A stretch of 46,145 bases of DNA from a virus, in UHGV virus genome UHGV-0144499. One strand, written 5' to 3'. How positions within the stretch are numbered: position 1 is the stretch's first letter; each line of letters starts with the position of its first letter. This document shows positions 482-45,821 of this stretch, piece after piece. Both the position numbers and the translations under genes were made by a program. The notes under the pieces were generated by a model. That model was not told the DNA's origin. It searched no databases and saw only the letters and a program-made list of their open reading frames with translations.

Positions 482-604
482 ATGCCAATCATACTGATAT
501 CATTCTTTGCTACTCTTTTCGCTTTTACCGCATCTCCGCTTTACCTTCTCGCGTCCGTTTCGTGGTGCATATTAATGGTGTGTTATAATCCGGGCATAAA
601 GTAA
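482..604 (+). CDS. small hydrophobic membrane peptide (40 aa, MPIILISFFATLFAFTASPLYLL...)
   Basis: ATG preceded by a consensus RBS AGGAGG at optimal spacing; product is almost entirely hydrophobic; below the ORF-track size cutoff. Confidence 0.4.
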   Translation: MPIILISFFATLFAFTASPLYLLASVSWCILMVCYNPGIK

Positions 605-5646: not shown

Positions 5647-5814
5647 TCAGTATCGTCGAATTTCATGGTATGCCTTTTCTGTTAAAAGGAATGTGAATCC
5701 TTTATCAATGGCGCCAGCAATCTCAATAACAGCTTTAGACATTTGATCAATAATGTCTTTGGTGCTCATCGAAGACCAATCAACGCCATTACCGCTATTG
5801 ATTAACCCTTTCAT
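5647..5814 (-). CDS. hypothetical small protein (55 aa)
   Basis: ATGA overlap with stop of the ParB-like gene (translational coupling); hand-translated. Confidence 0.35.
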   Translation of the reverse strand: MKGLINSGNGVDWSSMSTKDIIDQMSKAVIEIAGAIDKGFTFLLTEKAYHEIRRY

Positions 5815-6629
5815 CACAGCTTCTCCAGAATGGCTAACACTTCACTCAACTCAGCGGAAGGAAGGCGCAAAAATTCTTCTGTCTCCTGTGCCACATGGCC
5901 CTCAGCGACAACCATGTGATCTGCTTCTTTCAGCAACTGAATCAGGCGGTCAATCGGCTTAACTTTTTTGGCTTTGAGCGTTTTAGCCGTCACTTTATCC
6001 TTGCCCTGCGCTTTCGCTTCCTCAACGGCAGCATCAATAACGTTAACGGCATCATCGCCATGCTCGCGCGTCACTGCAACGGCGTTGGCATAGCTGATTT
6101 GGCCTGCATTGATGCGTTGCTTGATGGCATCAGGAACATCACCAAGTGACAGGTGCATCTGCACATCAGAAACTGAGCGGCCTACTTTTTTGGAGATTTC
6201 TTCATTCGTCCATCCGAACCCTTTGAGGCGCACATAAGCCTTTGCACGCTCAAGCGGGTCAAGCTGTTTGCCCTGACTGGATGACACCATGAAGGCGATT
6301 TTATCCGCTTCATCTCCGGTGAAATCTTTGCACTCAATGCGCGCAATTGGTACGCCGCGCTCAATGGCACGCAATGCGCCAAGGTAACGATGCTGACCGT
6401 CAAGAATCTTGATGCGCTTTCCGTCGGCATCAGGAATAACAGTTAACGCCGGGATTGGCTGGCCTGATTCCCAGCACTGCGCGAAGTACTCGACATGCTG
6501 CTCATCGGCTTCGCGGATGTTGTACCCCGGCTCAAGATAAAGCTGATCGACAGGAACCTGATAACCTTTGTTGACCACGATTCCGCCGCGAGTTTCTTTG
6601 TCTGAGTAAATTTTTCCGAGAGATGTCAT
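5814..6629 (-). CDS. ParB-like nuclease/CTPase-fold domain protein with HTH (271 aa)
   Basis: ParB N-terminal domain motif ILDGQHRYLGALRA (GxxRxxA arginine finger region) and downstream HTH; start set at ATG with AGGAA RBS (MTSLGKIY) rather than the RBS-less upstream ATG at 6665. Confidence 0.65.
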   Translation of the reverse strand: MTSLGKIYSDKETRGGIVVNKGYQVPVDQLYLEPGYNIREADEQHVEYFAQCWESGQPIPALTVIPDADGKRIKILDGQHRYLGALRAIERGVPIARIECKDFTGDEADKIAFMVSSSQGKQLDPLERAKAYVRLKGFGWTNEEISKKVGRSVSDVQMHLSLGDVPDAIKQRINAGQISYANAVAVTREHGDDAVNVIDAAVEEAKAQGKDKVTAKTLKAKKVKPIDRLIQLLKEADHMVVAEGHVAQETEEFLRLPSAELSEVLAILEKL

Positions 6630-6636
6630 CTTTTCC

Positions 6637-6753
6637 TCACTTTGATAAACAGATTGCGCTGGCAATGGCGAATCCGATAACGATTAATGCCAGCTTGATT
6701 TTGAACTTGTCCCACGCCTTCAGTTCTTCTTTTCGGATTTCGTGGCGAATCAT
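6637..6753 (-). CDS. small membrane ORF (38 aa)
   Basis: Hydrophobic core LALIVIGFAIASAI; its TGA overlaps the RBS of the ParB-like gene. Confidence 0.3.
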   Translation of the reverse strand: MIRHEIRKEELKAWDKFKIKLALIVIGFAIASAICLSK

Positions 6754-7399: not shown

Positions 7400-7426
7400 T
7401 TTCACCACCCCTAACATTTATTGTTG

Positions 7427-7484
7427 TTTCTACGTCATCACTATAGCGACACCCTCAATCTACGTCAACACTTTATGATAAAAT
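7427..7484. promoter_or_regulatory. divergent promoter/operator region: tandem TCTACGTCA repeats; minus-direction TTGACG-17-CTATAG; plus-direction extended -10 TGATAAAAT
   Basis: Two copies of (T/A)TCTACGTCA(T/A)CAC 22 bp apart (7427-7440, 7455-7468); reverse strand reads TTGACGtagattgagggtgtcgcTATAG; plus strand TGATAAAAT at 7476-7484. Confidence 0.45.
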
Positions 7485-9550: not shown

Positions 9551-9627
9551 TGGTTCCCGCGACAGGATTCGAACCTGTAATCATCCGATTATGAGCCGGG
9601 TGCTTTAACCAGTTAAGCTAAACGGGA
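9551..9627 (-). tRNA. tRNA-Met/Ile2 (anticodon CAT), encoded CCA
   Basis: Hand-folded cloverleaf: acceptor tcccgtt/cgcggga (one mismatch), D-arm gctt...aagc, anticodon loop ctCATaa, T-arm acagg-ttcgaat-cctgt, 3' CCA. Confidence 0.6.
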
Positions 9628-9630
9628 ATT

Positions 9631-9707
9631 TGGTGCACCATACTGGATTCGAACCAGTTACCGATTGCTTAGAAGGCAATTGCTCTATCCTGATGAGCTA
9701 ATGGTGC
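9631..9707 (-). tRNA. tRNA-Arg (anticodon TCT), encoded CCA
   Basis: Perfect cloverleaf: acceptor gcaccat/atggtgc, D-arm gctc...gagc, anticodon stem attgc/gcaat with loop ctTCTaa, T-arm actgg-ttcgaat-ccagt, disc A, CCA. Confidence 0.8.
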
Positions 9708-9798
9708 GTTGTGTTGTTGATTCGAATCTACACCACCAATCAAAACCTGTCAACATGATATAATGCGATTGTTTAGCTAAACACAGAGGATTCTAAAC

Positions 9799-11528: not shown

Positions 11529-11569
11529 TCAATCTACGTCAGTTTCGCGCCCCCTGTCAATGGTATAAT
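11529..11569. promoter_or_regulatory. promoter region: TCAATCTACGTCAG motif (minus-direction -35) and plus-direction extended -10 TGGTATAAT
   Basis: Motif 11529-11542; TGGTATAAT 11561-11569 upstream of chaperone/TMP operon. Confidence 0.4.
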
Positions 11570-15606: not shown

Positions 15607-15632
15607 ACCCCGCTATTGCGGGGTTATTTTGT
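15607..15632. terminator. bidirectional rho-independent terminator
   Basis: accccgc-tatt-gcggggt then TATTTTGT; stop codon of the minus-strand gene lies in the loop. Confidence 0.65.
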
Positions 15633-16503
15633 CTATCTCCATCATCAAGTCAGGAGTTCTAATCACCCACTCTGTACATCCATCAAAACCAGAAAGACCA
15701 GCCGATTTAAATTTGCTGTGAAAGTGCGACTCTATTTTTGCAGCATTAAATCCAGTTGTTTTTATCATCTTGATGACATTGAATTGGAATGGGGTATTTT
15801 TTGTTAATCTTCTAATCCTTTCAATTTTGTTGTGCGTGACGCCAATTTTAATCACCCCCAAAGACACAGACTCAAGGAAGTAAACATATGCTTTTTTTGT
15901 TGTTCTTTTGAATCCGTATTCTGCGCAATCCGGGCAACCCTGTCCATTAAGATGATTTGACGGTGCCTGCATGAAAACCCCATGCTCTTTGCAGGTGATG
16001 GCAACACTTTTGTTAGCTGATGTATAATCAACAAGAGAGTAATCATATTTGTTACCATGAACGGTGGCTGCTTTTATTACAAACTCTATAGTATTTGATC
16101 TGGTGCCTCCGCCGCAAAAATGACAACCGTGCCCAACCAGGTGCTTTTTCGGTGACTGCATGAAGTCACCGTGTATTCGGCAACAAATAACCATCTTATT
16201 AGATGTGTTTTTGTACGTATCTTTTTTATATGAATATCTTTCACCATGCACACTTATTGCTTTGCTAACGAAGTCATCGAAGGTCATCCTCCTTGAAGAC
16301 GTAACTATATCCCTAGCGCAATAATTACACCCAAATCCATACATGTGGTTAGATGGCGTTTGCTCAAAATCACCATGCATTGGACAGGTGATAATTACCT
16401 TTTCCTTTGAGTTAACGTACACGGATTTATCATAAATGTATTTGTCACCATGTACCGCTTTAGCTTTGGCAATAAATTCTTCGGTAGTTAGCTTGCGCAT
16501 CAT
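15613..16503 (-). CDS. T5orf172 (GIY-YIG-like) domain protein with three N-terminal Cys/His repeats; homing-endonuclease-like (296 aa)
   Basis: Three tandem ~45-aa repeats HG(D/E/N)KY.Y....................C..HG.F.Q.P..H..G.GC..C; C-terminal YVYFLESVSLGVIKIGVTHNKIERIRRL matches T5orf172/MUG113 core; inserted in reverse orientation between TMP and minor tail genes. Confidence 0.55.
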   Translation of the reverse strand: MMRKLTTEEFIAKAKAVHGDKYIYDKSVYVNSKEKVIITCPMHGDFEQTPSNHMYGFGCNYCARDIVTSSRRMTFDDFVSKAISVHGERYSYKKDTYKNTSNKMVICCRIHGDFMQSPKKHLVGHGCHFCGGGTRSNTIEFVIKAATVHGNKYDYSLVDYTSANKSVAITCKEHGVFMQAPSNHLNGQGCPDCAEYGFKRTTKKAYVYFLESVSLGVIKIGVTHNKIERIRRLTKNTPFQFNVIKMIKTTGFNAAKIESHFHSKFKSAGLSGFDGCTEWVIRTPDLMMEIDKITPQ

Positions 16504-16636
16504 TGAATCCTCGGTTAAAGGTGGTTTGAAGTGATGCAGCAGGCGATAACCAATCGCTTTTCGTCTGGCCGGACTAGCTGCACTGTGATTGTACCATCAA
16601 CGTGCTAAAATACAACAATACAAAATGGAGACCGCC

Positions 16637-17998: not shown

Positions 17999-20435
17999 TG
18001 TTCCTGCTGGCACAAATCTGTGGAGATGGCTGGAGAATTCCGGTCTTCCATCTGACATCAGGATTGCACTGAATGGCCGCATTTTTGGCCATGATGATGA
18101 ATTGTCGATATCGTTAAAGCAAAACGATATTGTTAACATTTACTGTCAGCCTCGAGGCGCCATTGGCGACCTTATCAGCACGATACTCAAGCCTGTAACG
18201 AAGGTGCTTTCTTTTCTGTTGCCGAAAGCATCAACGCCGTCAATCAACTCAGAAACATCAAAGTCATCGCCAAACAACTCACTCAAAGCTCAGACAAACA
18301 CGGCAAGAAATGGTGAGGCCAGACCTGATAATTTTGGGCAAGTCAGGAGTTATCCAGACCTGATTCAAGAGTCACTTTTTGAATACATAAATAACATAAA
18401 ATATGTTACAGAAATAATGAACTTCGGGCTTGGGAAATACACCGTCTCATCAGTCAGGTATTCAGAGTCAAACCTTGGCTCGCTTGCTGGTGCATCATAT
18501 ACAATATATAACCCTGGAGAAATTATACCTGTGATATATGAGCCTTATGCTTTTGATGATGTTGATGGTCAGGAATTATACGGACCAAATGAGTTGAGTG
18601 TTGACCCTCCTCCAGTGCAAATTGAGACAGCTACCACGACAACGGTAAGTGATTCCGACTTTGCATCCGGAGAGCTGCTCATAAAAATACCAAAAAATAG
18701 TGATTTCGACTATTTTGTAGACCTTACCATGCCGCATGCTGTTGTTTTTGAACTAAACATAACCTACCCAACTCCTGGGGGTAGCACAACAGCGGATGTT
18801 ACATTATCTGGAAACCTAACATTCGCGGAAGAAAAAAATGATGGATTAATACCTCCTGTGGATTACTGGTACGAATTTACAATAAACTCAATAAATTATG
18901 GCGGAGCGCCAATCTCATCCCTTGATGGGGTTACAATAAATAATACGTTATTTTCATTAACTGACAATCAACCGCTGGTATCTGGCCCATATTTCTCGCC
19001 AATAGAGGGGGGTGAGCTTTGGGTGCATTTCATAGCACAACTTGGAGATAAAGACTATGCAAATGTGAAGATTGAGTGGTGGAAAGTCGATGATAACAAC
19101 GAGCAAATACCAGAGACAAAGGAGGAGCATTTTTTTGAAACTGGAGCAGCACCAAGGACAGACAATTACTTTTACACAATAAAATTAACCCCATCAGCTG
19201 GATTCGGGAGATATGCAATACAGTTTTCAAGAACCAACAACAGCAATGACCACTCAATCATTCAGGTTGACGAGGTTCACACAATAATAAAGAGGGAAAA
19301 TGTATCCTATCATGATGACACAATTGTTAAGGTAGTTGTTAGAGCGACAGAAAACGCCACCGGGAGCAGGGAGAGAAAGTATAACGCGCTGATCACCCGC
19401 TGGACTATCGGATACAATAGAACAACCGGGACAGTCGACTATACGTTAAGGCCATCAAGAAGTTTTGCAGATTCAGTGCTGCATAACTGGCTTATTACCG
19501 CTGGTCAGTCTGAGAACACCATTGACGTTGGAAGGCTCTATGAAATAGCTGATTCGCTGCCTGATGAGCGTCTTGGGTACTTTGATTACACCTTTGACGA
19601 TGATGATAAGTCCATTGGTGAGCGAATTCAGACCATCTGTGATGCAGCTCGCGTAACGGTGTTTTGGGATGATGGTGTTTTATCTTTTTCAAGAGATGAG
19701 CAAAAATCAACCCCTGAAACTGTGTTTAATACCAGAAACACGCAGGCTGATGGCTATAAAATGTCTTATGACATGACTTTGCCGGGGTCATATGATGGCG
19801 TAAGTGTTCAGTACCGCGACCCAAACACCAATAAACAGGCTTACGTTTATTATAAAGTGGGCACTTCTGGTATCGAACCGGGAGAGCCAACTAAGCCGAA
19901 AAAATTCGACATGCTATATGTTCGAAACCTGTATCAGGCAACAGACCGGGCCATGCTTGAGTGCAATCGTCTGATGTACTCACGCCGAGGGATGGAGATA
20001 AAGGCGCTTGCTGATGGCGAGTGGGTGAACATTGGCGATATGATTTCTGTTGTCGACATTTATGATTCAGTGCAGCAGACTGGCGTTATCCGCTCAAGGT
20101 CTGGAAACGTATTAACCACCAGCGAGCAACTCACAGCAAGCAGTGGCTTGTTTGTAGTTATCACTGGCGCCAATGGGAATGTGTCAGAACGTCTGGCTTG
20201 TACTGTTACTGGATTGAACACATTCGAATGCGCATTGCCATCTGACTTCGAGTTAAACATTTTTGATGGTGTTAATGTTCAGTCAGAATCAAGATATGCC
20301 ATCTCAACAGAGGTTGAGCTTGACTCTACGCTATGGACAGTAAGTCAGAAAACTCCAGGTACAGATGGCACAGTGTCTCTAACCGTAACTGAGTACAATG
20401 ACGCCATGTACGCCTACACCAACCCTGTTGCATGA
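17946..20435 (+). CDS. tail tip protein: N-terminal lambda I-like assembly domain fused to J-like central fibre/host-specificity protein (829 aa)
   Basis: N-terminus [13 protein letters not shown]...[12 protein letters not shown]...[14 protein letters not shown] resembles tail assembly protein I; remaining ~600 aa large beta-rich tip protein in J position. Confidence 0.5.
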
Positions 20436-20473
20436 TACAATAGGGCAATTAATGATTATGGAGATTGCAGCCA

Positions 20474-25046: not shown

Positions 25047-25985
25047 TTACAGATTAAATTGCTTTTTGAACCACTCAGGCGTCTCCATTTCGATGACCGG
25101 ATTACCCATTGAGTAACCGGGCCATGAATTGGCTTTTTTGCATGCCTTGTAGATTTCCATCGCGCTGCGCAGCTGAATGCGACCAATGCGTAACTGCTCA
25201 TCCGTCAGACGAATCAGTGCAGGGATGAATGGAGACTTTTTCTCCTGCACCAAAAGGTTTACCGAGCGAGGAGCATGCCCATAAGCCTCTACAAACATGT
25301 CGTGCTGCATCGCCATCTTCATAAAGTACCCGAGACGCGCTGCATGGCGGAAAAACTCATCAGGCTTTGCGCTCACCGATGTTTTGTAGTCGATGATATC
25401 GCCACCGCGAGTAAGGCAGTCAAAGCGTACTTTTGATGGCTCGCCAAGCAACTCACCGAGAATTGACACCTCGGAATAAGCACCAGAAAGCAGGCTGCTG
25501 TAATAGCTGTTTGCATGGATTACGGCGCGCATCTGCATGATGGCGTCATAATCATCGCCTTCCAGCAAAATTCTTCCTTTTGCATTGAGTTCAGCAAATA
25601 GGCGCTCTTCATCATAGATTCTAACTGGCTCACCAGTTGAGCGGATGATTTTAATCACCTCAGCCTTTGTTTTGCCAGAAAGCCCCTTAATGCCGCGCTC
25701 TTTCGCCCATGAGTTCATATCGCTCACAGTAACAAGCAGTTCCGCGCCGAAATCCTCTTTCGTCGGCATGCGGGCATATTCTGCTTCGAAGCGCTCAGGC
25801 TCAAGCAGGGCTGTATGGCTTCCTGTGCCGAAGACAAGAGCCTTTGACTGCTCATCTTCTTCGTCTTTGTAGCGCCACGCTGCCGGACAGCGGTCATAGA
25901 TGTTCCACAGACCAGAGCCATTGATGTGCTCTGTGTCAGCGTGGTACTGCTCGTTACTGAGTTCGTTGTTTAAATAAACTTTCAT
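25047..25985 (-). CDS. PD-(D/E)XK family exonuclease (recombination)
   Basis: GDIIDYKT (D-x-D/E-x-K) nuclease motif; recombination-module context. Confidence 0.5.
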   Translation of the reverse strand: MKVYLNNELSNEQYHADTEHINGSGLWNIYDRCPAAWRYKDEEDEQSKALVFGTGSHTALLEPERFEAEYARMPTKEDFGAELLVTVSDMNSWAKERGIKGLSGKTKAEVIKIIRSTGEPVRIYDEERLFAELNAKGRILLEGDDYDAIMQMRAVIHANSYYSSLLSGAYSEVSILGELLGEPSKVRFDCLTRGGDIIDYKTSVSAKPDEFFRHAARLGYFMKMAMQHDMFVEAYGHAPRSVNLLVQEKKSPFIPALIRLTDEQLRIGRIQLRSAMEIYKACKKANSWPGYSMGNPVIEMETPEWFKKQFNL

Positions 25986-26029
25986 CCATCACCTCTTTTT
26001 ATTGTTAAATCAATCTACATCAAACCACG

Positions 26030-26446
26030 TCATTCATCAAGCCCAAAATAGAATAACGTCGCTCTTTTTATCCCTTCAAGACCATAAGCAATAGCGCCAA
26101 AGTGACCCTCTGCAATGGCGCACTCAAGAACCTCAATCTGCGATGGCGATACCTTTGATTTTGTCTTATCACGCCTCTTCAGCTCAATCAGGCCGCATTT
26201 ATGATTAATGCCGTGAGTTAGTATCACATTGTCGCTTACACCGCTCCTGACGCCCATTTTGCGGCGTTTTTCGACGAATTGAGGGCCACTCTTTGTTCCT
26301 GTCTCATTAGGGACATGAAACCACAGGACATCAGGAAATCTGTGTTGCATCCAAAGGCCATACCCCATCTGGTCAGTCTCTTCTTTAGGGCATTCTCCAC
26401 GATAACCACTGTCGAATACCCATATCCCGCTATCAAGCTGCTTCAA
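26030..26446 (-). CDS. VRR-NUC domain nuclease (138 aa)
   Basis: HVPNET...GLIELKRRDK pattern consistent with the VRR-NUC PD-(D/E)XK variant. Confidence 0.5.
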   Translation of the reverse strand: MKQLDSGIWVFDSGYRGECPKEETDQMGYGLWMQHRFPDVLWFHVPNETGTKSGPQFVEKRRKMGVRSGVSDNVILTHGINHKCGLIELKRRDKTKSKVSPSQIEVLECAIAEGHFGAIAYGLEGIKRATLFYFGLDE

Positions 26447-28373: not shown

Positions 28374-28939
28374 TCACCCTAAATTAACAAACTCTTTATG
28401 GTTAACCACCATGAATTCACTAATCGCCTTCTCTGCTGATTCTATGGTATCAAACAATCCAATATGAACCCTCTTCTTGTTTATTGAGGTTTGCGCTCGC
28501 CATTTGTTGCATCTTTTATCAAAATGCACGCCTTTTACTCCGGATTTATTTGTTGATTTCTTTTTCATGTTGAACATGTTTTGTTGATGACTGGAAATTC
28601 TAAGGTTGCAAATTCGATTGTCTGATTTATCACCATTTATATGGTCTATTTCATGACCATCGATATCTTCTCCATAAACATAAATCCACGCCAATCTATG
28701 CGCGAAAACAGCCTTGATCCAACCCTTATTTTTATGTACCCACGTGAATTTTTATATCCAGCAATATCTCCTGGATTGACATTTCTTGAGTTGCCATTAA
28801 TCCAGGTAAACACCCCAGTGCCAGGGCTGTAATCAAGAACCTGCATCAGCCTTTCCCGTGAAATTTTTACTCCTTCTTTCTTCCCTGAATTTTTTAAGCC
28901 TGCATCCTGAGCAGCAGAACTCAGCTCTTGATGTTCCAT
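28374..28939 (-). pseudogene. second HNH-AP2 homing endonuclease, split into two frames by the ORF track (28646..28939 NUMOD-like N-terminus; 28374..28694 HNH + AP2)
   Basis: N-terminal part GTGVFTWINGNSRNVNPGDIAGYKNSRGYIKI and C-terminal part GEDIDGHEIDHINGDKSDNRICNLRISSHQQN + AP2 (KSGVKGVHFDKRCNKWRAQTSINKKRVHIGLF) are collinear with the intact paralog at 10894-11379; frames differ by 1 nt in an A-rich run near 28676-28686, and the C-terminal ORF lacks an ATG. Confidence 0.45.
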
Positions 28940-29059
28940 GAAATTCTCTCCCGCAGTGTTTGCACTTCTTCAATGTGATAGCCATTTGTTAACCTCAATA
29001 TTAAACTCAGTTGCGTTTCATGTCAAGAACGCTTGCGCGTTTCATGTGAGTAAATTACA

Positions 29060-29986
29060 ATGAATCTACATCATAGTCAACTGGAAGAAATTATGCGATA
29101 CGACTGGAAGGATATAGAGCCTTTAATGGTAGGTAACTGGGAGGCTGCTCTACTCTCAATAGTGAATATTGACAGGAATGTTTTTAATGGAAAGCATCAG
29201 CCATGCCCTCATTGCATGGGTAAGGACAGGTTTAGGTGGGATAACAACTTCGAAACAAAAGGTGACGGCGGCGCCATCTGCAACCAGTGCGGAAACGGCA
29301 GCGGAATCACCTGGCTAATGAAGCTGTCAGGAATGACGTTTCCTGAGTCAATGGAAGCACTGGCCGGATTTCTTAACATGCATCCAAGAGAAAAACTTGA
29401 GGCGATTAGAAAGCAACTTCCGAAGGTCAACCATGCTTCTGACTACCTGACAGAGGCAGAAGTGGCGGCCATAATGGAAAAAGCAGGAGGCGACACCATA
29501 ACCGGCAAAACTGGTGAACTGGTGGCGATACCACTCTATATGGCTGGAACTATGACGCCATGCAATGTGGCTTTTATGGCTGATGATGAAACCGTTTCAT
29601 TTCGAGCGGGGTTCAGCCATGAATACACTCGCGGAAGGCTAACGCGCGGCGCAGTGACACCCATCGGCGATAAGACGGAGTGGACATACCTTGTGTCCAA
29701 TTACTTTGACGCATGGCGAGCGCATCGGCTTACCGGCGCCCATGTCTGGTGCTGCTGGTCTCCTGAAAACATGTGGGAAGTTGTGCGCAATGTGAGCGAT
29801 GAGCAGCGAGCCAAACTACGCTGTATCATTAATAATAATTTCGATGAGGTATGCGCAGCCGAGAATGCAGATATTCCGATACTGATTACTGATGATGGTC
29901 ATGATATTCGTTACAGCGGCGCCATCAGAAAAAGACTATATAAACCAGAAGAGCTATTTGAAGCACTAAAAAATAAACCCTCCTGA
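29060..29986 (+). CDS. DNA primase-like protein with DnaG-type CHC2 zinc-binding domain (308 aa)
   Basis: QPCPHCMGKDRFRWDN...GAICNQCGNGSGITWLMKLSGMTF matches the DnaG zinc-binding signature; lone + strand gene inside the minus-strand replication block. Confidence 0.55.
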   Translation: MNLHHSQLEEIMRYDWKDIEPLMVGNWEAALLSIVNIDRNVFNGKHQPCPHCMGKDRFRWDNNFETKGDGGAICNQCGNGSGITWLMKLSGMTFPESMEALAGFLNMHPREKLEAIRKQLPKVNHASDYLTEAEVAAIMEKAGGDTITGKTGELVAIPLYMAGTMTPCNVAFMADDETVSFRAGFSHEYTRGRLTRGAVTPIGDKTEWTYLVSNYFDAWRAHRLTGAHVWCCWSPENMWEVVRNVSDEQRAKLRCIINNNFDEVCAAENADIPILITDDGHDIRYSGAIRKRLYKPEELFEALKNKPS

Positions 29987-30000
29987 TGGAGGGTTTTTGT
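29975..30000. terminator. bidirectional rho-independent terminator
   Basis: aaaccctcc-tgat-ggagggttt then TTTGT; the primase stop codon lies in the loop. Confidence 0.5.
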
Positions 30001-30356
30001 TACTCAAGATTGTACTTTTTGACGGCAGCATCAATAGCCTTGCAGCAGTGCCTTATTGCTCTCATTTTTGTGTTTGATTTGCCACACGCATGTATCTGGT
30101 GAGCACCGTCATGGAGATAAATTAAATCAGTAGCGATGGCTCTCCAGTCATTATCGTGAGACGTAACTCCACGCCTAAAGCAAAGAAAATAATGACCATT
30201 AAAGCATTCCTGAGTAAGATCCATTACCTCAGAATGAAATACGGACGCATCAAATAAACACTGGTCTGCCGCGCCTTGCAACCCGAACCACATGCCATCA
30301 TGAGTGCCTGACATGGCGTAATAAACTGCGGCAGTAACGCGAGTATTAACTTTCAT
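30000..30356 (-). CDS. hypothetical protein (118 aa)
   Basis: ORF ATGA-coupled with upstream replication gene. Confidence 0.45.
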   Translation of the reverse strand: MKVNTRVTAAVYYAMSGTHDGMWFGLQGAADQCLFDASVFHSEVMDLTQECFNGHYFLCFRRGVTSHDNDWRAIATDLIYLHDGAHQIHACGKSNTKMRAIRHCCKAIDAAVKKYNLE

Positions 30357-32008
30357 TTCAGACCTCTCATGAATTTCATCCTGTTAACAGCAGCTGAAAG
30401 TATGTTTCTCACCGAGGCATTCATTCGCAAACCAGACCAGGAACCTTCATCCCTGAATACGATTTTTGACCCGCCATTAATAGCAGAAGCCTCAATGTCG
30501 ATAGGTGAGTGTCTGTTTTCTGTAATGGAAACCAGAACCTCAGAAATGAACCTGTCAGGCGTTACCTGTAAATGATTTGAGTTTGCCGCCTTGATGATTG
30601 TCTCAATTCGACCACGGCACAATCCGCTTTTCAGTACGGAAGTGTAAGGCTTATTAATGAATTTTTTCCCGGCCATCACCTTTCTCATTTTGGCAATGAT
30701 GTTTTCCCACTCATCCTCTTCAAGGCCACTGAATGCAACGTCACCTTCTATATAATCACGAAGCGAGCGAAGGTGATTTATCACTGTCATATAAGCCCAT
30801 TCAAGATGCCTGTCGCACAAAATTGGCGTCATTCCATTGCGACTCGAAAGGTCTGCAAATGCGCATATCGAGGCAAGGTCTACGATCATCTGCCCGGCGC
30901 GCGGGACAACATCGCCAATTACACCATCTACATTTCCGAGACATTTCTCAAGGTGGCACGTAAGCTCATAACGCCTGTCGTTTACCTTTTCACTTTCAAA
31001 TTCAACGCGGGTTATTGAGCGGAGGATTCTTTGCTTCCATTCATTTACTATTCTCCTGTTTACCTCACCTGCTGGCTGCTCTCTTTTTAGTAATGGCATT
31101 TCCTCGTCATCGCCATGACCAAGGATGAACAACGTCCTGCCCATGCCACCATCCTTCTGCCATGACCTTACCGCATCAATACCCTGAACTGGCGTTACAG
31201 TGATGAGCGGAATAAATCTTGCGTTCTCAATACCTCCATCTCGCGTGCATAATTCATGCTCTGCCATCACTTTTTTCAGGTTCCTGCCGACACTGTGATC
31301 CATCTGAGACAATCTTTTATAGTCAATCATCCCATCCTGCGCACCGCCAATACGCGGAACAATCCAGCCTTCCGCCATAGCAACACTAACTATCGTCTTG
31401 GGGTTCATGGCTTTAGCCATATTCTCCTCAATATCCCTGATTATTGTCCTGGTTGGAACCCACCCACCTTCATCAGTCAAACTGCGATACCACGGCGCAG
31501 TTCCGCCAAGATATGCGCTTCTCGGGTCATTCCATGAGTCAATATGCTGCTTGTCATCGTTTACGACGTAAAGCAGAGAGCCATCACCTTCAATCATGCT
31601 GGTCTGTATCTGCTTTAATGATGTAGCAGTAGTGGTGCAAAGGCGGTCGCTTATCATCAGGGCTTCGGCATATTGCTTTATAAAATTAACTGGCGCCTGC
31701 TTGCCAGCTCCAGACCTCGCCACGAGGAAAATCCCAGTAGAGCACTTACTCCCAGTGGGGCCAATAATAAATCTACCAGCCATTATCTGAGCAAGTCCAA
31801 GCGCGCCAACAAGTCGATATTTTTCGCCATCATCACGGCGCTCGAAATTTTTCTCTATCTCATCGATGAACTCCCCAAGTGAACCGGGTGGGATCTTGTA
31901 TTTCTCTCTGAACTCAGGAATGTCAGCCTCATCGAGCGGGTCTATTGATGAATCCGCTTTCCCGACGGATTTTTTCATGGCGATAATTTCGTATGTATTC
32001 ATCAGCAA
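30353..32008 (-). CDS. putative DNA replication protein (551 aa; P-loop-like GPTGSKCS / ARSGAGKQ)
   Basis: Largest gene of the replication block, first gene downstream of the iteron region; function inferred mainly from context. Confidence 0.35.
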   Translation of the reverse strand: MLMNTYEIIAMKKSVGKADSSIDPLDEADIPEFREKYKIPPGSLGEFIDEIEKNFERRDDGEKYRLVGALGLAQIMAGRFIIGPTGSKCSTGIFLVARSGAGKQAPVNFIKQYAEALMISDRLCTTTATSLKQIQTSMIEGDGSLLYVVNDDKQHIDSWNDPRSAYLGGTAPWYRSLTDEGGWVPTRTIIRDIEENMAKAMNPKTIVSVAMAEGWIVPRIGGAQDGMIDYKRLSQMDHSVGRNLKKVMAEHELCTRDGGIENARFIPLITVTPVQGIDAVRSWQKDGGMGRTLFILGHGDDEEMPLLKREQPAGEVNRRIVNEWKQRILRSITRVEFESEKVNDRRYELTCHLEKCLGNVDGVIGDVVPRAGQMIVDLASICAFADLSSRNGMTPILCDRHLEWAYMTVINHLRSLRDYIEGDVAFSGLEEDEWENIIAKMRKVMAGKKFINKPYTSVLKSGLCRGRIETIIKAANSNHLQVTPDRFISEVLVSITENRHSPIDIEASAINGGSKIVFRDEGSWSGLRMNASVRNILSAAVNRMKFMRGLK

Positions 32009-32283
32009 ACCTTCCAGATGTACAGGAATTTACCCATCGGGCCATTTTTGGTCTTAATGTTCATGTTATGCGCAATGGCAATCTTTGCAGCATAGGAGCG
32101 GAACATGTTTCTGTTCATCCGGTACTGTGGGGGGATATCAGATAATCTGCACTCCTCTTTGTAACCCCTGACTACTGAATCTGATAAATCATTTTCGAAA
32201 TGGACGGATATCACCTCCCCGCTCTTCATGGCGGCAAGGTGGTCATAAACGAACTTCATCTTTGAGCCTTCTGCGTGCATCAC
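32002..32283 (-). CDS. hypothetical protein (93 aa)
   Basis: First ORF of the leftward early operon, RBS GGAGGAAG. Confidence 0.45.
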   Translation of the reverse strand: MMHAEGSKMKFVYDHLAAMKSGEVISVHFENDLSDSVVRGYKEECRLSDIPPQYRMNRNMFRSYAAKIAIAHNMNIKTKNGPMGKFLYIWKVC

Positions 32284-32397: not shown

Positions 32398-32664
32398 AGT
32401 TCCCAAGAGTTCCCGCGCATTTGGGAACTCGCAGACCGCGCGTGGCAAGGCTTGCAGAGGAGTTCCCGAGTTCCCTGGGAATTCCTCTAGTAAAAAAGTA
32501 ATATATACCTTTAATAGATGTTGTTGTTTTTATTAGTGAAAATAGAATTTCTAATTTTTGGGAAAATTCATTTCTAAGGAAAAAGCTGGGAACTCGGGAA
32601 CTCTTTGATTTATAACAATAAATCGCGGGAACTCGCCCGGGAACGGCTGGGAATTACGGGAACA
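32398..32664. repeat. iteron array (about 12 copies of GGGAAC/GTTCCC) flanking a ~100-bp AT-rich core: candidate replication origin / operator cluster
   Basis: Left cluster 32399-32483 (GTTCCC x4, GGGAAC, GGGAAT); AT-rich 32490-32585 (>80% AT); right cluster 32588-32663 (GGGAAC x5, GGGAAT); at the divergence point of leftward replication genes and rightward genes. Confidence 0.55.
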
Positions 32665-32705: not shown

Positions 32706-32734
32706 TTGACGTAGATTGAGCGCCATCGTATAGT
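32706..32734 (+). promoter_or_regulatory. sigma70-type promoter TTGACG-17-TATAGT (rightward) containing the recurring motif in inverted orientation
   Basis: TTGACGTAGATTGA at 32706-32719 (reverse complement of TCAATCTACGTCAA), TATAGT at 32729-32734. Confidence 0.6.
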
Positions 32735-34449: not shown

Positions 34450-34527
34450 TGGCTCATGCGGCATGGTGTGGAATCTGATACAATATCCAATAACGGAAAA
34501 ATAGCGGAATATTGATGGGTTTTATCT

Positions 34528-34944: not shown

Positions 34945-35043
34945 CTGATTTATAATAATTAATGCGGCTAGGGGGCACCCGAAAAGCGACTCATCACCGC
35001 CTGCTGCATTCACTTCAATGATGCCCTGATGAGGAATCTATAT

Positions 35044-37563
35044 ATGGCACGCAAAAGACTGTCAGCACCAGCAATTGAAAAACTTGAAGAGATTATTGGC
35101 GATGGCGTGATTGATGCGCCTGAATCTGCGGTGTTCGGTGTTGTTAATACAGATAAGCAGATTGTTCGCAAACTCAAAATGACGCAAAGCGGAGTTGATG
35201 ACGTTAGCGACTCTGATATTGGCGTTGATCACCTGATACCAGAAAAGCTGGAAAAGCTACTTTACCCCAAGAGAAATAAGATTGTGTTTGGCGGGCGCGG
35301 ATGCTTAGCCATCGGCACGATGGTGAGGATGTTTGATGGTGGCCTAAAACGCGTAGAGGATATCGTTGTTGGCGATAAGGTTATGGGTCCAGACAGTAAG
35401 TCACGAAATGTTTTAAGCATCTGTCGTGGGTTTGATGACATGTACACGGTTCATCAAAAATATGCCGATAACTACACCGTCAACTCAAGTCACATACTGT
35501 CATTACGAAAGATTCCATCTGCTATCAGTGACGAGACAAAAACACCGGATGGTAAAAGAATTTATCGTTATTACCCAAATGAACCTGAAGTACTGAACAT
35601 CGGTGTTTCAGAATATTTATCGCGCGCAACTTCTAAAAAGTTCCGCCATGTCTTTAAAGGGTGGCGAACAGGGTGGGATTTTAATGAGCAGAGCGTTCCA
35701 GTTGACCCGTACTTCCTTGGTTTATGGTTAGGTGATGGCTCATCTCGTAGTGTTGAAGTATGCACGCCTGATCAAGAGATAGTTGACTACCTTCACAGCA
35801 TAGCAAACCAATACGGGATGCAATTAAAGGCTCGGGATAAAGACAGATGTCCTGTCTATGCGATAACTAATGGCCGAACTGCTGGCATGGGGGAAAACAC
35901 CAACCCGTTACTAACTAAAATGCAGCAGCTTGGGGTGATTAATAATAAACACATACCTGACTGCTATATCAAAAACAGCAGAGAGGTAAGACTTCAGATT
36001 CTGGCTGGGCTATTGGATACTGATTCGCATTACCACAAAGAAAAGAAAAGCTATTGTTTTACATCAATAAATAAAGATATAGCCTTCTCTTTGATGGATG
36101 TAGCAAGATCGCTTGGTTTCAAGTCAAGCATAATCAAAAAGACTGATGTCACCTTTGAGTATAAAGGCGAGAAAAGAATATACGAAAAGGATGTGTGGGA
36201 GGTGTTCGTTAGTGGTGACCTTCATACAATCCCATGCCGAGTAAAAAGGAAGATAGCAGAGAGAACCAAGTCAACTCGCGGGATGATGACTGAGGTGTCA
36301 TTGTCTTATGCCGGGCATGGTGAATACGCTGGGTTCACTCTTGATGGCGATCATCTTTTCTTGCTTGCTGACGGCACAGTTACACACAACAGCGGAAAAA
36401 CAAGAACAGTAACTACAATACTTACGGAGCGTGCACGTTTCAAACCTGACAGGATGGCTTGTTTTCGTGAGATTCAGCAGTCTATTGAGGATAGTTCATA
36501 TCAGGAACTGAAAGACGAGATTGACAGGAAGGGCGAGACAAAAGAGTTCCGCGTCATCAACAACGAAATAACGCACAAGGTAACGAAAGCAAAGTTCCGC
36601 TTTAAAGGGCTGTATCGCAACCAGACGACCGTAAAAGGCTTCGCTGGCATTACAGTAGCTTGGGTCGAGGAGGCGGAAAACGTCAGCCAGACAAGCTGGG
36701 AAATCCTCACCCCAACAGTCCGCGCTGAAGGGTCAGAGATATGGGTGACTTTCAACCCAAATAAAGAGCATGACCCGACGTGGAAAATATGGGTTGAGCC
36801 TTTTTATAATAAATTGCGCGAAAATGGCGGCATCTATGAGGATGATGAAAACCTGATTATCGAGTGTAATTACTCAGACAATCCGTGGTTCTGGGATACT
36901 CCGCTCCCAAGCCAAATGCAGCGCATGAAAGAAACCGACTTCGACCGCTATCAATGGGTGTGGGGTGGGCGCTTTAATAAGCGTAATGATGAGCAGGTAT
37001 TTGGCGGTAAGTGGCGCGTTGCTGATTTCGAGGTTAAGCCGGAATGGCATGGGCCTTACTTTGGCATCGACTTTGGATTCTCGCAGGACGCAACGGCGAT
37101 GGTTGAGGTTTACATTGAGAAACTTCCTGATGACCGCCGCAACCTTTACGTCGCGCGCGAATACGGCCGTGTAGGCCTTGAGATTACCGACACACCTACA
37201 GCGATGGAGCAATCATTCCCACTCTCCAGGAAGGCAAGATGGTATGGGGACTGCTCTCGGCCAGAAACAATCAGTCACATCAAACGCGCAGGATTTGATA
37301 TCCATCCATGCAATAAGTGGCCCGGGAGCGTGGAGGAGGGTGTAACCTGGCTCAGGGGTTGCGACAGCATCATCATTCATGACCGCTGCACACAGACTCA
37401 GGAAGAGTTCACTATGTACAGTTACAAGGTGGACAAGCTGACGGGTAACGTGCTCACAAATATTGTGGATGCGTGGAACCACTTCATTGACGCAATCAGA
37501 TATGCATGCAACGATCACATCGTACAGCGTGGCTCTGGATGGATTAGAAGGGGCAGGAGATGA
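35044..37563 (+). CDS. terminase large subunit, interrupted in-frame by an intein (extein about 476 aa)
   Basis: Walker A split as VFGGRG | intein | SGKTRTVT; Walker B ITVAWVEEAEN; C-terminal nuclease-type region; start at ATG with GAGGA RBS (MARKRLS). Confidence 0.85.
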   Translation: MARKRLSAPAIEKLEEIIGDGVIDAPESAVFGVVNTDKQIVRKLKMTQSGVDDVSDSDIGVDHLIPEKLEKLLYPKRNKIVFGGRGCLAIGTMVRMFDGGLKRVEDIVVGDKVMGPDSKSRNVLSICRGFDDMYTVHQKYADNYTVNSSHILSLRKIPSAISDETKTPDGKRIYRYYPNEPEVLNIGVSEYLSRATSKKFRHVFKGWRTGWDFNEQSVPVDPYFLGLWLGDGSSRSVEVCTPDQEIVDYLHSIANQYGMQLKARDKDRCPVYAITNGRTAGMGENTNPLLTKMQQLGVINNKHIPDCYIKNSREVRLQILAGLLDTDSHYHKEKKSYCFTSINKDIAFSLMDVARSLGFKSSIIKKTDVTFEYKGEKRIYEKDVWEVFVSGDLHTIPCRVKRKIAERTKSTRGMMTEVSLSYAGHGEYAGFTLDGDHLFLLADGTVTHNSGKTRTVTTILTERARFKPDRMACFREIQQSIEDSSYQELKDEIDRKGETKEFRVINNEITHKVTKAKFRFKGLYRNQTTVKGFAGITVAWVEEAENVSQTSWEILTPTVRAEGSEIWVTFNPNKEHDPTWKIWVEPFYNKLRENGGIYEDDENLIIECNYSDNPWFWDTPLPSQMQRMKETDFDRYQWVWGGRFNKRNDEQVFGGKWRVADFEVKPEWHGPYFGIDFGFSQDATAMVEVYIEKLPDDRRNLYVAREYGRVGLEITDTPTAMEQSFPLSRKARWYGDCSRPETISHIKRAGFDIHPCNKWPGSVEEGVTWLRGCDSIIIHDRCTQTQEEFTMYSYKVDKLTGNVLTNIVDAWNHFIDAIRYACNDHIVQRGSGWIRRGRR
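35302..36390 (+). mobile_element. intein with LAGLIDADG homing-endonuclease domain (363 aa) in the terminase P-loop
   Basis: Begins CLAIGT (block A), TVNSSH (block B), LGLWLGDGS and LAGLLDTDSHY (LAGLIDADG blocks), ends ...VTHN followed by extein Ser (block G); insertion precisely between GRG and SGKT of Walker A. Confidence 0.8.
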
Positions 37564-37583: not shown

Positions 37584-37873
37584 CTATTTATAAAGCCAGC
37601 AATGAATCCCCGCATTGCGCATGGCCGCGTAAATAACATCATCAGAAACGACCGCCATTGCCACCCTGTCAGCGTCAACCTGCTGGTGCGAAGCCATGAT
37701 GTCATCATAGAAAACATCGTTAGCATGCAGCCACTCATACGCATGCTTTGCCCTCATGATAAGCACATCATGCCCGGCAGAGTAGAGCGACTTAGCCAGC
37801 GCAATGTTGCCAGCAATAGCATTCCTTCAGCATCGCGCAGCACGCCATCAAGCTCGAAAATGACACATTTCAT
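37584..37873 (-). pseudogene. remnant of a HAD-superfamily phosphatase gene (frameshifted/truncated)
   Basis: Frame a (37754-37873): MKCVIFELDGVLRDAEG, a HAD motif-I-like start with the first Asp replaced by Glu; frame b (track ORF 37584..37766): ...AVVSDDVIYAAMRNAGIHCW, a HAD motif-IV-like C-terminus; total far too short for an intact HAD fold. Confidence 0.35.
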
Positions 37874-37899: not shown

Positions 37900-37941
37900 A
37901 ATCTACGCCATGCTAGAATCTACGTCAAGGCGCATTGACAT
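37900..37941. promoter_or_regulatory. promoter/operator: AATCTACGCCA + GAATCTACGTCAAG tandem motif; minus-direction TTGACG-17-TAGATT
   Basis: Copies at 37900-37910 and 37916-37929; plus strand TTGACA at 37936-37941. Confidence 0.4.
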
Positions 37942-39474: not shown

Positions 39475-39482
39475 TACCATGC

Positions 39483-39514
39483 TATAATCCCATCTATGCG
39501 ATGGGATTTTTTAT
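39483..39514 (+). promoter_or_regulatory. extended -10 (TGCTATAAT) fused to hairpin atcccatc-tatgc-gatgggat + T6 directly upstream of portal gene
   Basis: Perfect 8-bp stem and TTTTTTAT tract 10 nt before portal ATG; TATAAT at 39483-39488 overlaps the stem. Confidence 0.4.
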
Positions 39515-42380: not shown

Positions 42381-42403
42381 TTTTTACTCTCCTGTGTTTG
42401 TGT

Positions 42404-42455
42404 ATCTACATCATCGCTTACGATTCAATCTACGTCAAGACTATTGTGATAAAAT
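42404..42455. promoter_or_regulatory. divergent promoter/operator: ATCTACATCA + TCAATCTACGTCAAG; plus-direction TGATAAAAT extended -10 for lysis genes
   Basis: Copies at 42404-42413 and 42425-42439; TGATAAAAT at 42447-42455; near-identical architecture to 7427-7484. Confidence 0.45.
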
Positions 42456-44565: not shown

Positions 44566-44612
44566 TTGACTAATCTACGTCAATTAGTCAATACTAGGTG
44601 TTGTAGATTGTA
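44566..44612. promoter_or_regulatory. divergent promoter/operator: TTGACT + AATCTACGTCAAT motif, inverted half copy TTGTAGATTG
   Basis: Motif 44572-44584; inverted copy 44601-44610; lies between divergent genes 44542 (-) and 44638 (+). Confidence 0.4.
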
Positions 44613-44637
44613 TCATAGTTGCGAGAGGTGGTGTGGA

Positions 44638-45128: not shown

Positions 45129-45361
45129 AACCAATGATGAATGATGAGAAATTACTAGGGTGTCCGTTTTGCGGTAGCGAAAATTCCATGCGGAACAAGG
45201 ATGGGCAATGGCATTTTGTAGTATGCCAGGATTGCGGCTGCCGTACTGATGACTGGATGGTTGCGGCGACAGCAATCATTAAATGGAATACCAGAAATGG
45301 CCACCTCTATACCGCTGACGACTACAAGCAAGATGCAATGGAGCGCGCAAATGGACTTTAA
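45113..45361 (+). CDS. zinc-ribbon protein (82 aa)
   Basis: CPFCGSEN...CQDCGC four-Cys ribbon. Confidence 0.5.
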   Translation: MGGEMKPMMNDEKLLGCPFCGSENSMRNKDGQWHFVVCQDCGCRTDDWMVAATAIIKWNTRNGHLYTADDYKQDAMERANGL

Positions 45362-45821
45362 AACGCAAATACTCACGGTGATAGAGCGCTGCGGCGGCGC
45401 AACCAATGCCATGATACGCAAGCAGACTGGCATGACAAACCGAGCCAGCGTTACAGGCTATCTGATTGAGCTGGAGAGCATGGGATTTATTATTAAGGAG
45501 GAAAGCGTCAGCTATGGCAGGCGCTGCTTTAAGTATTTCCTCAATCCAGATAATACCGCGCTTGACCTGGCAATTCAGGCCTATCTTGAGGCGAATCCGG
45601 GACGCAAGAGCAAGCAGATAGCAGAGGCTGTAGGCGTCAATTACACCATTCTCAAGGCACGCATGCGCTATCTGGCAAGCATTGGTCAGGTTGACCGTGA
45701 AATGCTTCCCGGCGGTGCATGGAAATATTACTGGCAGGAGATCATCCCGTTTGGCATGAGCCGTGACAGGATGATGTTTGAAAAGCTGCTTGCCGGGGCA
45801 CGTCAGTCATGTGGGCGGTAA
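45351..45821 (+). CDS. putative winged-helix DNA-binding protein (156 aa)
   Basis: Two HTH-like segments; start chosen at ATG 45351 with GGAGCG RBS. Confidence 0.4.
   Translation: MDFKTQILTVIERCGGATNAMIRKQTGMTNRASVTGYLIELESMGFIIKEESVSYGRRCFKYFLNPDNTALDLAIQAYLEANPGRKSKQIAEAVGVNYTILKARMRYLASIGQVDREMLPGGAWKYYWQEIIPFGMSRDRMMFEKLLAGARQSCGR

Follow-up and report, generated by a model that had tools for sequence, protein, structure and literature searches.

A conserved, asymmetric 11-bp motif in the promoter regions of Roufvirus-like phages and related genera, and a predicted class of extended -10 late-type promoters

The regulatory DNA of a Klebsiella siphophage genome carries a dispersed, asymmetric 11-bp unit, 5'-TGRYGTAGATT-3', which on balance we read as a cis-regulatory site embedded in promoters that would also be the operator of a sequence-specific, most likely phage-encoded protein. 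The clade-wide 11-mer, which is accompanied by a distinct class of predicted extended -10 promoters, is real and is undescribed in the searchable literature, where we found nothing on transcriptional control in the Roufvirus/Skatevirus group, no transcription start, binding or expression report for any member of the clade, and the motif sequence in no paper except for one unrelated primer.

The stretch of DNA analyzed here (the window, 46,145 nucleotides) is a near-complete, circularly permuted 46-kb Klebsiella siphophage genome of the Roufvirus-like type. Over the one 6-kb stretch tested, 75-90% of which aligned, it is 92-95% identical to Aeromonas phage pIS4-A (genus Roufvirus), to Klebsiella phages ZCKP8, KpV2811, and BUCT541, and to others. 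Farther relatives are the Salmonella phages Skate and seszw (Skatevirus), Escherichia phage C1 (Deseoctovirus), and LPSTLL (Segzyvirus). Relatives are called lytic in the titles of papers devoted to them, and neither an integrase nor an immunity repressor was found in the annotations of relatives or among the window proteins scanned. Short leftward groups of non-structural genes interrupt the long rightward structural and lysis operons; each of these blocks has a bidirectional terminator at its 3' end, and its 5' start faces a rightward operon.

An earlier note on this DNA had described a recurring 12-14-mer, (T)CAATCTACGTCAA, which is the complement of the unit. Its recurrence beyond chance was borne out: with up to two mismatches allowed, CAATCTACGTCAA has seven matches against 1.2 expected, a number reached in 0 of 100 dinucleotide shuffles. 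The 9-mer TCTACGTCA has seven exact occurrences in the window, and 16 copies of the 7-mer core AATCTAC compare with 4.2 expected from shuffles. The unit itself proved shorter than proposed. Among the aligned copies of the window, exactly 11 positions carry high information content, which drops to zero on either flank, and the same 11-position profile was found independently in Skate. The extra T that completes TTGACG carries almost no information over all copies and is not conserved overall, and the aligned copies have no dyad within the 11-mer.

Thirteen copies were located in the window, 11 on the minus strand (7437, 7467, 9735, 11541, 26022, 29073, 37910, 37927, 42413, 42437, and 44582) and two on the plus strand (32707 and 44599). 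The coordinates given earlier for motif copies were all confirmed, and the sites then listed were correct; the copies at 26012-26022 and 29063-29073 had been missed. The copies and the roles predicted for them are as follows.

7427..7437, minus strand: motif copy TGACGTAGAAA, over the predicted +1 region of the leftward ParB-cassette promoter
7457..7467, minus strand: motif copy TGACGTAGATT, which with T7468 makes the -35 TTGACG of a leftward promoter with its -10, TATAGT, at 7440-7445
9725..9735, minus strand: variant motif copy TGGTGTAGATT, the -10 of TTGACA (9748-9753)-17-TAGATT
11531..11541, minus strand: motif copy, the -10 of TTGACA (11555-11560)-18-TAGATT, leftward HNH cassette
26012..26022, minus strand: motif copy TGATGTAGATT (AATCTACATCA), the -10 of TTGATG (26035-26040)-17-TAGATT
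29063..29073, minus strand: motif copy TGATGTAGATT (AATCTACATCA), over the predicted start of the rightward primase promoter
32707..32717, plus strand: motif copy, which with T32706 makes the -35 TTGACG; -10 TATAGT at 32729-32734
37900..37910, minus strand: motif copy TGGCGTAGATT, the -10 of a tandem-pair leftward promoter (TTGACG-17-TAGATT)
37917..37927, minus strand: motif copy TGACGTAGATT, the -35 of the tandem-pair leftward promoter
42403..42413, minus strand: motif copy TGATGTAGATA, over the -10/+1 of the leftward promoter at the lysis junction
42427..42437, minus strand: motif copy, which with T42438 makes the -35 TTGACG, 17 bp from GATGAT (42410-42415)
44572..44582, minus strand: motif copy, left half of an inverted pair, within the spacer of the rightward TTGACT-18-AATACT (junction J6)
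44599..44609, plus strand: degenerate copy TGTTGTAGATT, right half of the inverted pair, overlapping a leftward extended -10

All 13 copies fall in non-coding regulatory DNA, 12 of them at operon starts, where they lie on core promoter elements; no Rfam RNA family overlaps any copy. Eight of the nine divergent junctions carry the motif, as does one internal leftward promoter upstream of exoVIII. In 11 of the 13 copies the strand reading TGRYGTAGATT faces non-structural genes, with the head, tail, and lysis operons behind it; the genes it faces are those of the ParB cassette, the tRNAs, the HNH cassette, recombination genes, small early genes, and the Lar/winged-helix cluster. At seven units the start codon lies 22-30 nt downstream of the nearest copy. 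This placement, together with promoter scans, upholds the view that leftward cassettes, and the rightward early operon at 32706, have the motif at their promoter regions. The further claim that every reverse-oriented cassette has it was too broad: the sole divergent junction lacking a copy flanks a free-standing homing-endonuclease gene of the T5orf172/GIY-YIG type (15613-16503, minus strand), which has its own extended -10 promoter.

Promoter hexamers were located by an independent consensus scan, and the pair at 26022 by a separate script. Eight copies join a -35/-10 pair spaced at 16-18 bp (7467, 9735, 11541, 26022, 32707, 37927, 37910, and 42437). Among the best matches of the scan were TTGACA-18-TAGATT (11560 to 11531), TTGACA-17-TAGATT (9753 to 9725), TTGACG-17-TATAGT (7468 to 7440 and 32706 to 32734, each scoring 10/12), TTGACG-17-TAGATT (37928 to 37900), and TTGACG-17-GATGAT (42438 to 42410). 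Since the scan finds the motif as a -10 and as a -35, it is used in at least three registers. In class A (9735, 11541, 26022, and 37910), TAGATT is the -10 and a separate -35 lies 17-18 bp upstream. In class B (7467, 32707, 37927, and 42437), (T)TGACG is the -35 and the -10 follows 17 bp downstream. Class C copies (7437, 42413, 29073, 44582, and 44599) have no partner hexamer in the direction of the arrow, and a promoter role for these five is assumed from geometry alone. The earlier assignment of TTGACG as a -35 hexamer 17 bp from a -10 fits the four class B copies and fails at the other nine, the motif giving the -10 in class A and neither hexamer, in the arrow direction, in class C. That the two halves of the motif serve as sigma-70 promoter hexamers is nonetheless well supported by sequence. 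Tandem copies offset by exactly 17 bp even make up a complete predicted promoter from two motifs, an arrangement seen in three genera (window 37927/37910; Skate 2221/2204 and 45162/45179; C1 38351/38334).

Several of these predicted promoters can be tied to particular genes. The one at 9735 would serve tRNA-Arg and tRNA-Met (9551-9707, minus strand), with a predicted start ~11 nt before the 5' end of tRNA-Arg. The copy at 26012..26022 belongs to an internal promoter of the leftward recombination operon, upstream of exoVIII (25047-25985, minus strand; J5), and the one at 32707 to the rightward early promoter (J7). At the primase promoter, which has TACAAT at 29054-29059, the copy at 29063..29073 sits 19 nt 5' of the conserved primase ATG.

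Absence or lack of conservation of the motif in relatives had been set beforehand as an observation that would overturn the proposal. The motif is kept in four genera, and because the 11-mer is conserved at orthologous junctions, the proposal stands on this count. The other Roufvirus-like phages, Skate, seszw, C1, and RSU-F4K5 have 7-10 exact 11-mer sites per genome, which fall at orthologous junctions; LPSTLL has two exact and four one-mismatch copies in the 17-kb stretch examined, and 69 IMG/VR loci of the clade have a density of 4.2 copies per 10 kb. T1 and Jilinvirus ep3 lack the motif. When nine orthologous junctions from Roufvirus-like phages, Skate, and C1 were aligned, no block was better conserved than the 11-mer at J2, J3, J4, J5, J7, and J9, and the flanks diverge. 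At J3 (11531..11541) the -35 and the motif are conserved and the spacer has diverged; at both J3 and J4 every genus has the TTGACA -35 17-18 bp from TAGATT, with differing sequence in the spacer. The copy at 7427..7437 (J1) is in the same place in Skate, C1, RSU-F4K5, and VLCpiS13d, the variant at 9725..9735 (J4) is kept in RSU-F4K5, Skate, C1, and the Segzyvirus LPSTLL, and the inverted pair at J6 is perfect in RSU-F4K5, Skate, and C1. Copy number at J7 and J9 differs between genera (one versus two) with the unit sequence unchanged; at J9, the primase junction, KpV2811 and VLCpiS13d have two copies.

A scan of IMG/VR with the exact 14-mer returned mostly single chance matches, plus members of the clade and one E. 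coli prophage near thrW, in which the 11-mer pair stands as an inverted repeat although the prophage is unrelated and shares no proteins with the window; the scan was uninformative as to the protein that would read the site. The prophage match came from a very large collection and may be due to chance. It could also be taken in favor of a different explanation, in which the motif is a recombination or exchange boundary flanking variable cassettes, as in the promoter-stem-loop cassettes of T4-type phages, or the site of a host transcription factor common to enterobacteria. In keeping with exchange, the leftward cassettes bounded by motif and terminator vary in gene content between close relatives, and the 5' leader at J1 is identical across genera though the first gene differs. 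We consider this explanation highly improbable: 11 bp is too short for homologous exchange by itself, the exact register with promoter hexamers would go unexplained, the copies at the tRNA and exoVIII promoters are not at cassette borders, and the 11-mer is not known to match the consensus of an enterobacterial factor.

A closer competitor to the operator reading is that the motif is a rigid sigma-70 consensus of early or cassette ('moron') promoters, with host RNA polymerase as its sole reader; extra conservation would then reflect effects of promoter strength or context, or concerted evolution of paralogous promoter cassettes. Both halves do match hexamers at the canonical 17-18 bp spacings, and TAGATT and TATAGT are interchangeable as the -10 at J7, where TATAGT of the window is replaced, in the Skate and C1 orthologues, by the TAGATT of a second motif copy. 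That the motif does not vary across genera fits an invariant reader, such as the enterobacterial RNA polymerase, and both candidate phage regulators are dispensable in viable phages.

Other features of the copies make us regard this reading as fairly unlikely. At class A sites the upstream bases T-17, G-16, R, Y, and G-13 are as conserved as the hexamer, with T, G, and G invariant, and they sit elsewhere than the known TGn extension; at class B sites (J1 and J2) TAGATT is conserved though it lies within the spacer. Sigma-70 is not known to make contacts that would fix T-17, G-16, and G-13, or a TAGATT right after the -35. The first T of the -35, as noted, is not conserved over all copies, and five copies have no partner hexamer. 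Moreover, copies overlap the -10/+1 of oppositely directed promoters at 37911, 29054, and 44615 in the window (TGCTAGAAT-CTACGTCA at 37911, TACAATG-AATCTAC at the primase promoter, and TGATACAAT-CTAC at 44615) and at 2290 and 11331 in Skate (TATAAT-CTACATCA and TGGTACAAT-CTACGTCA). At J1 and J2 a second copy covers the -10/+1 of the leftward promoter. The one at J2, the lysis junction, is direct in the window and in RSU-F4K5 and inverted at the same position in Skate and C1, so that its place is conserved and its orientation is not. Such flipping is tolerable for an operator and not for a promoter element.

The full 11-mer is unchanged in Roufvirus-like phages, Skatevirus, Deseoctovirus, and Segzyvirus, whichever half is used. 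Because of this, we take it to be also the operator of a sequence-specific DNA-binding protein; taken together, the features above are those of a protein-binding site that came to be used in promoters, or the other way round. The earlier note had suggested cooperative binding from copies duplicated 16-24 bp apart; such binding with a fixed spacing is not supported since spacings and orientations vary: pairs do exist, with direct offsets of 17, 24, and also 30 bp and inverted offsets of ~27 bp.

The second element, TGnTAnAAT, occurs 14 times on the plus strand of the window against twice on the minus strand, with 3.8 expected per strand. Relatives show the same bias (Skate 11:2; C1 1:10, the C1 record being in reverse orientation). 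Ten copies lie directly 5' of structural or lysis genes, and none of these ten predicted late promoters has a convincing -35. The genes behind them encode capsid, connector, major tail, tape-measure, minor tail, tail fibre, small terminase, portal, and lysis proteins. These ten are listed here together with the one extended -10 that points leftward at J6.

7476..7484, plus strand: extended -10 TGATAAAAT, rightward head-tail connector operon, overlapping a leftward promoter that bears the motif
581, 9756, 11561, 16603, 20433, 34476, 37911, 39480, and 42447: the other extended -10 late promoters
37911..37919, rightward: extended -10 TGCTAGAAT, the 37911 element, interleaved with the tandem motif pair 37900-37927
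44607..44615, minus strand: leftward extended -10 TGATACAAT

By their sequence and position, the TGnTAnAAT elements are a predicted late-type promoter class that is separate from the motif; we infer the early or late timing of the units from their gene content. The motif adjoins only five of the ten extended -10 late promoters, the other five having none nearby. Where the two adjoin, they are 11-13 nt (J1 and J2), 22-23 nt, or 31-32 nt apart, and the distance varies between genera (22 versus 31 nt; 23 versus 27 nt). A general pairing of motif and extended -10 is thus contradicted by the motif-less half and the unconserved distance; the narrower statement that an extended -10 follows the 14-mer by ~8 bp is right for 7476 and 42447 (7-8 bp) and wrong for 11561 (19 bp).

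In another reading the motif would be the activator box of a modified RNA polymerase, with a phage factor recruiting the polymerase to -35-less promoters in the manner of sigma appropriation by MotA. In its favor, the box has many copies, no symmetry, and a length of about one helical turn; its J1 and J2 copies are 11-13 nt 5' of a -35-less extended -10, centered near -30, and five copies have TAGATT without a -35 in the arrow direction. Against this, every second extended -10 late promoter is without the motif, the distance is not conserved between genera, and many copies sit not at -30 but on the -10 or +1. No protein of the MotA or AsiA family was found among the ~40 window proteins scanned, and the activator reading appears very unlikely to us. 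A late-promoter activator site kept in helical phase, which the distances had at first seemed to show, was rejected in view of the orthologues at 23 versus 27 nt and of the motif-less half.

Where an extended -10 abuts a leftward promoter that bears the motif, the two promoters share their upstream DNA back to back. At 37900-37927 the leftward motif promoter and the rightward extended -10 interleave completely, and polymerase occupation of the two should therefore be mutually exclusive. With the 11-mer read as an operator, a bound protein would cover the -35, the -10, or the +1 of motif promoters and so shut them off, which would make it a temporal or autoregulatory repressor. The DNA shared at back-to-back junctions would be left to the -35-less extended -10 late promoters; protein on the motif would, we infer, favor the late direction. 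The earlier suggestion of a phage regulator that switches divergent transcription fits this anatomy and is the reading we favor, on what the arrangement of sites suggests. A more specific version, which we put forward as speculative and rather improbable, regards the motif as a fused -35/-10 mimic (TGACG plus TAGATT), so that one 11-bp sequence would form the early promoters and also allow a ParB/KorB-like silencer to shut all of them together. In full, the near-universal ParB/KorB-like protein with its CTPase fold would be a global silencer in the style of KorB, a ParB-family timer reading asymmetric half-sites in variable arrangements. If true, a lytic phage would have a member of the ParB family as its transcriptional timer.

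Two phage proteins are candidates for the reader, and both of their genes would be transcribed from predicted promoters that bear the motif.

5814..6665, minus strand: candidate reader 1, ParB/KorB-like helix-turn-helix (HTH) protein of 283 aa (Pfam HTH_ParB 2e-10, KorB 3e-5)
45351..45821, plus strand: candidate reader 2, tandem double winged-helix protein of 156 aa (PHROG 1687; MarR-like in the annotation of relatives)

The ParB-like gene is in the first cassette downstream of the double-copy promoter 7467/7437. Its product can be aligned with Spo0J, ParB, Noc, and KorB through both the N-terminal domain and the HTH, has its GxxR motif altered to GQHR, and is ~82% identical in Skate and C1; the gene is present in 54 of 55 clade loci in IMG/VR. 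VLCpiS13d has lost it and keeps all motif copies. This loss does not exclude the ParB-like protein as reader, since the deletion looks recent: a 31-aa remnant is 100% identical. Jilinvirus ep3 has a 50%-identical homologue and no motif. A separate candidate for the site of this protein, the GGGAAC repeats at 32399-32663, was rejected, as they occur only in the window and are tied to a replication module specific to it. We regard the ParB/KorB-like protein as the somewhat likelier of the two candidate readers, though as less likely than not.

For the tandem winged-helix protein, an AF2 model (pLDDT 85.5) has two winged-helix domains in one chain, and a Foldseek search with this model matched tandem winged-helix proteins and MarR. 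Two winged helices in one chain, as modeled, would suit an asymmetric site. Across genera the protein has diverged to just 35-38% identity, and the motif is unchanged; the second recognition helix of the protein is conserved (Y98, K102, R104, and R106). The gene is distributed exactly as the motif-bearing clade is. It is deleted in the viable, genome-reduced Skatevirus seszw_290S, in which the motif copies persist; in the seszw genome-reduction study the authors did not target 'likely regulatory elements'. Both gene losses, in seszw_290S and in VLCpiS13d, may be too recent for decay of the motif to show. This protein is a possible reader, slightly less likely than the ParB-like one; we think it unlikely that there is no reader beyond polymerase, and a little less likely still that some other phage or host protein fills the role.

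Phylogenetic profiling does not discriminate among readers, because the tandem winged-helix gene and the motif share the same clade distribution and the motif is invariant across genera. Proteins of the ParB/KorB and MarR types normally read palindromes. The 11-mer is asymmetric, not a palindromic 13-16 bp site of the parS or OB type, and copies form inverted pairs, variably spaced, at J6 and, in Skate and C1, at J2, and nowhere else. Nor does the second candidate look like a MarR-type homodimer on a palindrome, its AF2 model being a tandem winged-helix monomer and the site asymmetric.

Conserved promoter and operator motifs are common in phages, and we claim no new principle. Roufvirus, Skatevirus, Deseoctovirus, and Segzyvirus include many Klebsiella, Salmonella, and E. 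coli phages under study for therapy and biocontrol, and for these the analysis offers a testable promoter map, with about a dozen motif promoters, about ten -35-less late promoters, and two candidate regulators. Such a map could be of use in phage engineering, for placing payloads and choosing deletions, and in reading the mosaic structure of cassettes.

The arrangement recalls several known systems. Phage P1 is temperate, and its C1 protein, which maintains lysogeny, has an asymmetric 17-bp operator. Like the motif, the P1 C1 operators are more than ten dispersed, asymmetric copies over promoters, some of them tandem or inverted, and the motif is indeed non-palindromic, present in 13 copies, and overlaps promoters. 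The P1 operator, however, is 17 bp long and unrelated in sequence, and the motif phage has no integrase or recognizable repressor among the genes examined; the temperate lifestyle and immunity of P1 are not seen in the window phage. The stoperators of phage L5, read by gp71, are 13-bp asymmetric sites in many intergenic copies oriented to transcription, one of them on the early promoter. The complement of a stoperator has a -35-like TTGACA, as the motif has its TTGACG-type half. L5 stoperators lie mostly within operons and block elongation, whereas 12 of 13 motif copies are at operon starts, and hosts, site sequence, and lifestyle differ, L5 being temperate.

With KorB and OB of plasmid RK2 the window phage shares a ParB-family HTH protein, about a dozen promoter sites, and a regulator gene under its own site. 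OB, in contrast, is a 13-bp palindrome, while the motif is asymmetric, the candidate has its GxxR altered (GQHR), and its gene has been lost in a few viable relatives. The MotA box of phage T4 resembles the motif at J1 and J2, being a short, asymmetric replacement of the -35 with 11-13 nt spacing. This geometry holds at only those two junctions, the motif elsewhere lying on the -10/+1 or 22-32 nt away, so it is not found near -30, 12 +/- 1 bp 5' of the -10, at all promoters as a MotA box would be. Protein p4 of phi29 (A2b/A3), finally, acts from a site between back-to-back early and late promoters, the late one without a -35, as seen here, and in such an arrangement one protein could repress one direction and favor the other; its sites are inverted repeats upstream at a single locus, whereas the motif is asymmetric and stands at eight junctions. 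Because each of these systems differs from the motif in a defining feature, we file it under none of them.

The structural and lysis operons of the window are preceded by a class of extended -10 promoters, TGnTAnAAT, which lack a -35 element:

581-589 (+), TGnTAnAAT extended -10 promoter
9756-9764 (+), same class
11561-11569 (+), same class
16603-16611 (+), same class
20433-20441 (+), same class
34476-34484 (+), same class
39480-39488 (+), same class
42447-42455 (+), same class

TGnTAnAAT is biased in strand: it occurs 14 times on the plus strand of the window and twice on the minus strand, the ratio is 11:2 in Skate, and C1, whose genome is reversed, has 1:10. A strand-biased class without a -35 suggests that contacts by sigma region 4 would not be needed for late transcription.

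An extended -10 element also accompanies one of two homing endonuclease genes in the window, the first of which is free-standing:

15613-16503 (-), T5orf172/MUG113 (GIY-YIG-like) homing endonuclease with zinc-finger domains
28374-28694 (-), HNH_3 and AP2-domain homing endonuclease, flanked by the helicase gene and the primase junction

The former sits as an insertion between the genes for the tape measure and the minor tail, and its junction is the only divergent one without the 11-bp motif. Its extended -10 and leader, TGGTACAATcacagtgcagctagtccggccagacgaaaag (16588-16611), were found again before a homologous homing endonuclease gene in Skate, at a different locus (4698, +). A leader is conserved at J1, the orthologous junction that carries the leftward ParB-cassette promoter. 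Here, the leader of the leftward unit, beginning TGACGTAGAAACAACAATAAATGTTAGAGGTG (7417-7445, -), is identical in the Roufvirus-like phages, Skate and C1, even though these phages differ in the first gene that follows it. This leader may act as a signal in translation or at the RNA level, or else mark a recombination boundary.

Further peculiarities of the window lie in the terminase region:

35029-37563 (+), large terminase, 844 aa (about 480 aa in ZCKP8)
37584-37873 (-), sole leftward gene between the terminase and the portal cluster, 96 aa

Within the large terminase lies an intein that carries a LAGLIDADG homing endonuclease; its Hom_end_hint match spans residues 92-178 and Hom_end/LAGLIDADG residues 309-375, and the terminase domains start at residue 454. 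The leftward gene, annotated in relatives as a polynucleotide kinase or phosphatase, is broken in the window into two frames of 39 and 60 aa, either by a frameshift or by an error in sequencing. The stretch 34961-35024 (+), located between the genes of the two terminase subunits (small and large), matches the Rfam int-alpA RNA motif just over threshold (37.4 bits versus a gathering score of 35.8).

To the left of the early promoter, a large non-coding region holds a repeat cluster found in none of the relatives checked:

32399-32663, GGGAAC/GGGAAT/GTTCCC repeats (n = 12)

These repeats adjoin a replication module (30000-32283, -) for which Pfam gave no match and tblastn found nothing in ZCKP8, pIS4-A, Skate or C1. 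The repeats probably represent iterons, or else the origin of a replication module that was swapped in.

Outside these phages, an inverted motif pair, AATCTACATCAA-N7-TTGACGTAGATT, followed by TTGACG-17-TAGACT, was identified in an E. coli prophage near thrW/proA on the D8 chromosome (locus L131, 9203-9233), where a small serine recombinase gene lies about 200 bp upstream of it, and also at loci L015, L029 and L074. Of 5426 complete E. coli genomes, 576 have a match to the 801-bp region with the pair, in 170 cases over at least 80% of its length. The prophage is unrelated to the window, with no proteins in common, and the pair may reflect either chance or a wider use of the motif site.

In Escherichia phage ep3, whose ParB-like protein is homologous to that of the window at 50% identity, a palindrome occurs in seven dispersed copies, six of which extend to ACAATSATTGT:

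1470, 4740, 23315, 28382, 33463, 37341 and 39279 (ep3), CAATSATTG

One copy lies directly upstream of the ParB-like gene, after which comes an ATPase gene, and the palindromes may be parS-like sites of the ep3 ParB-like protein.
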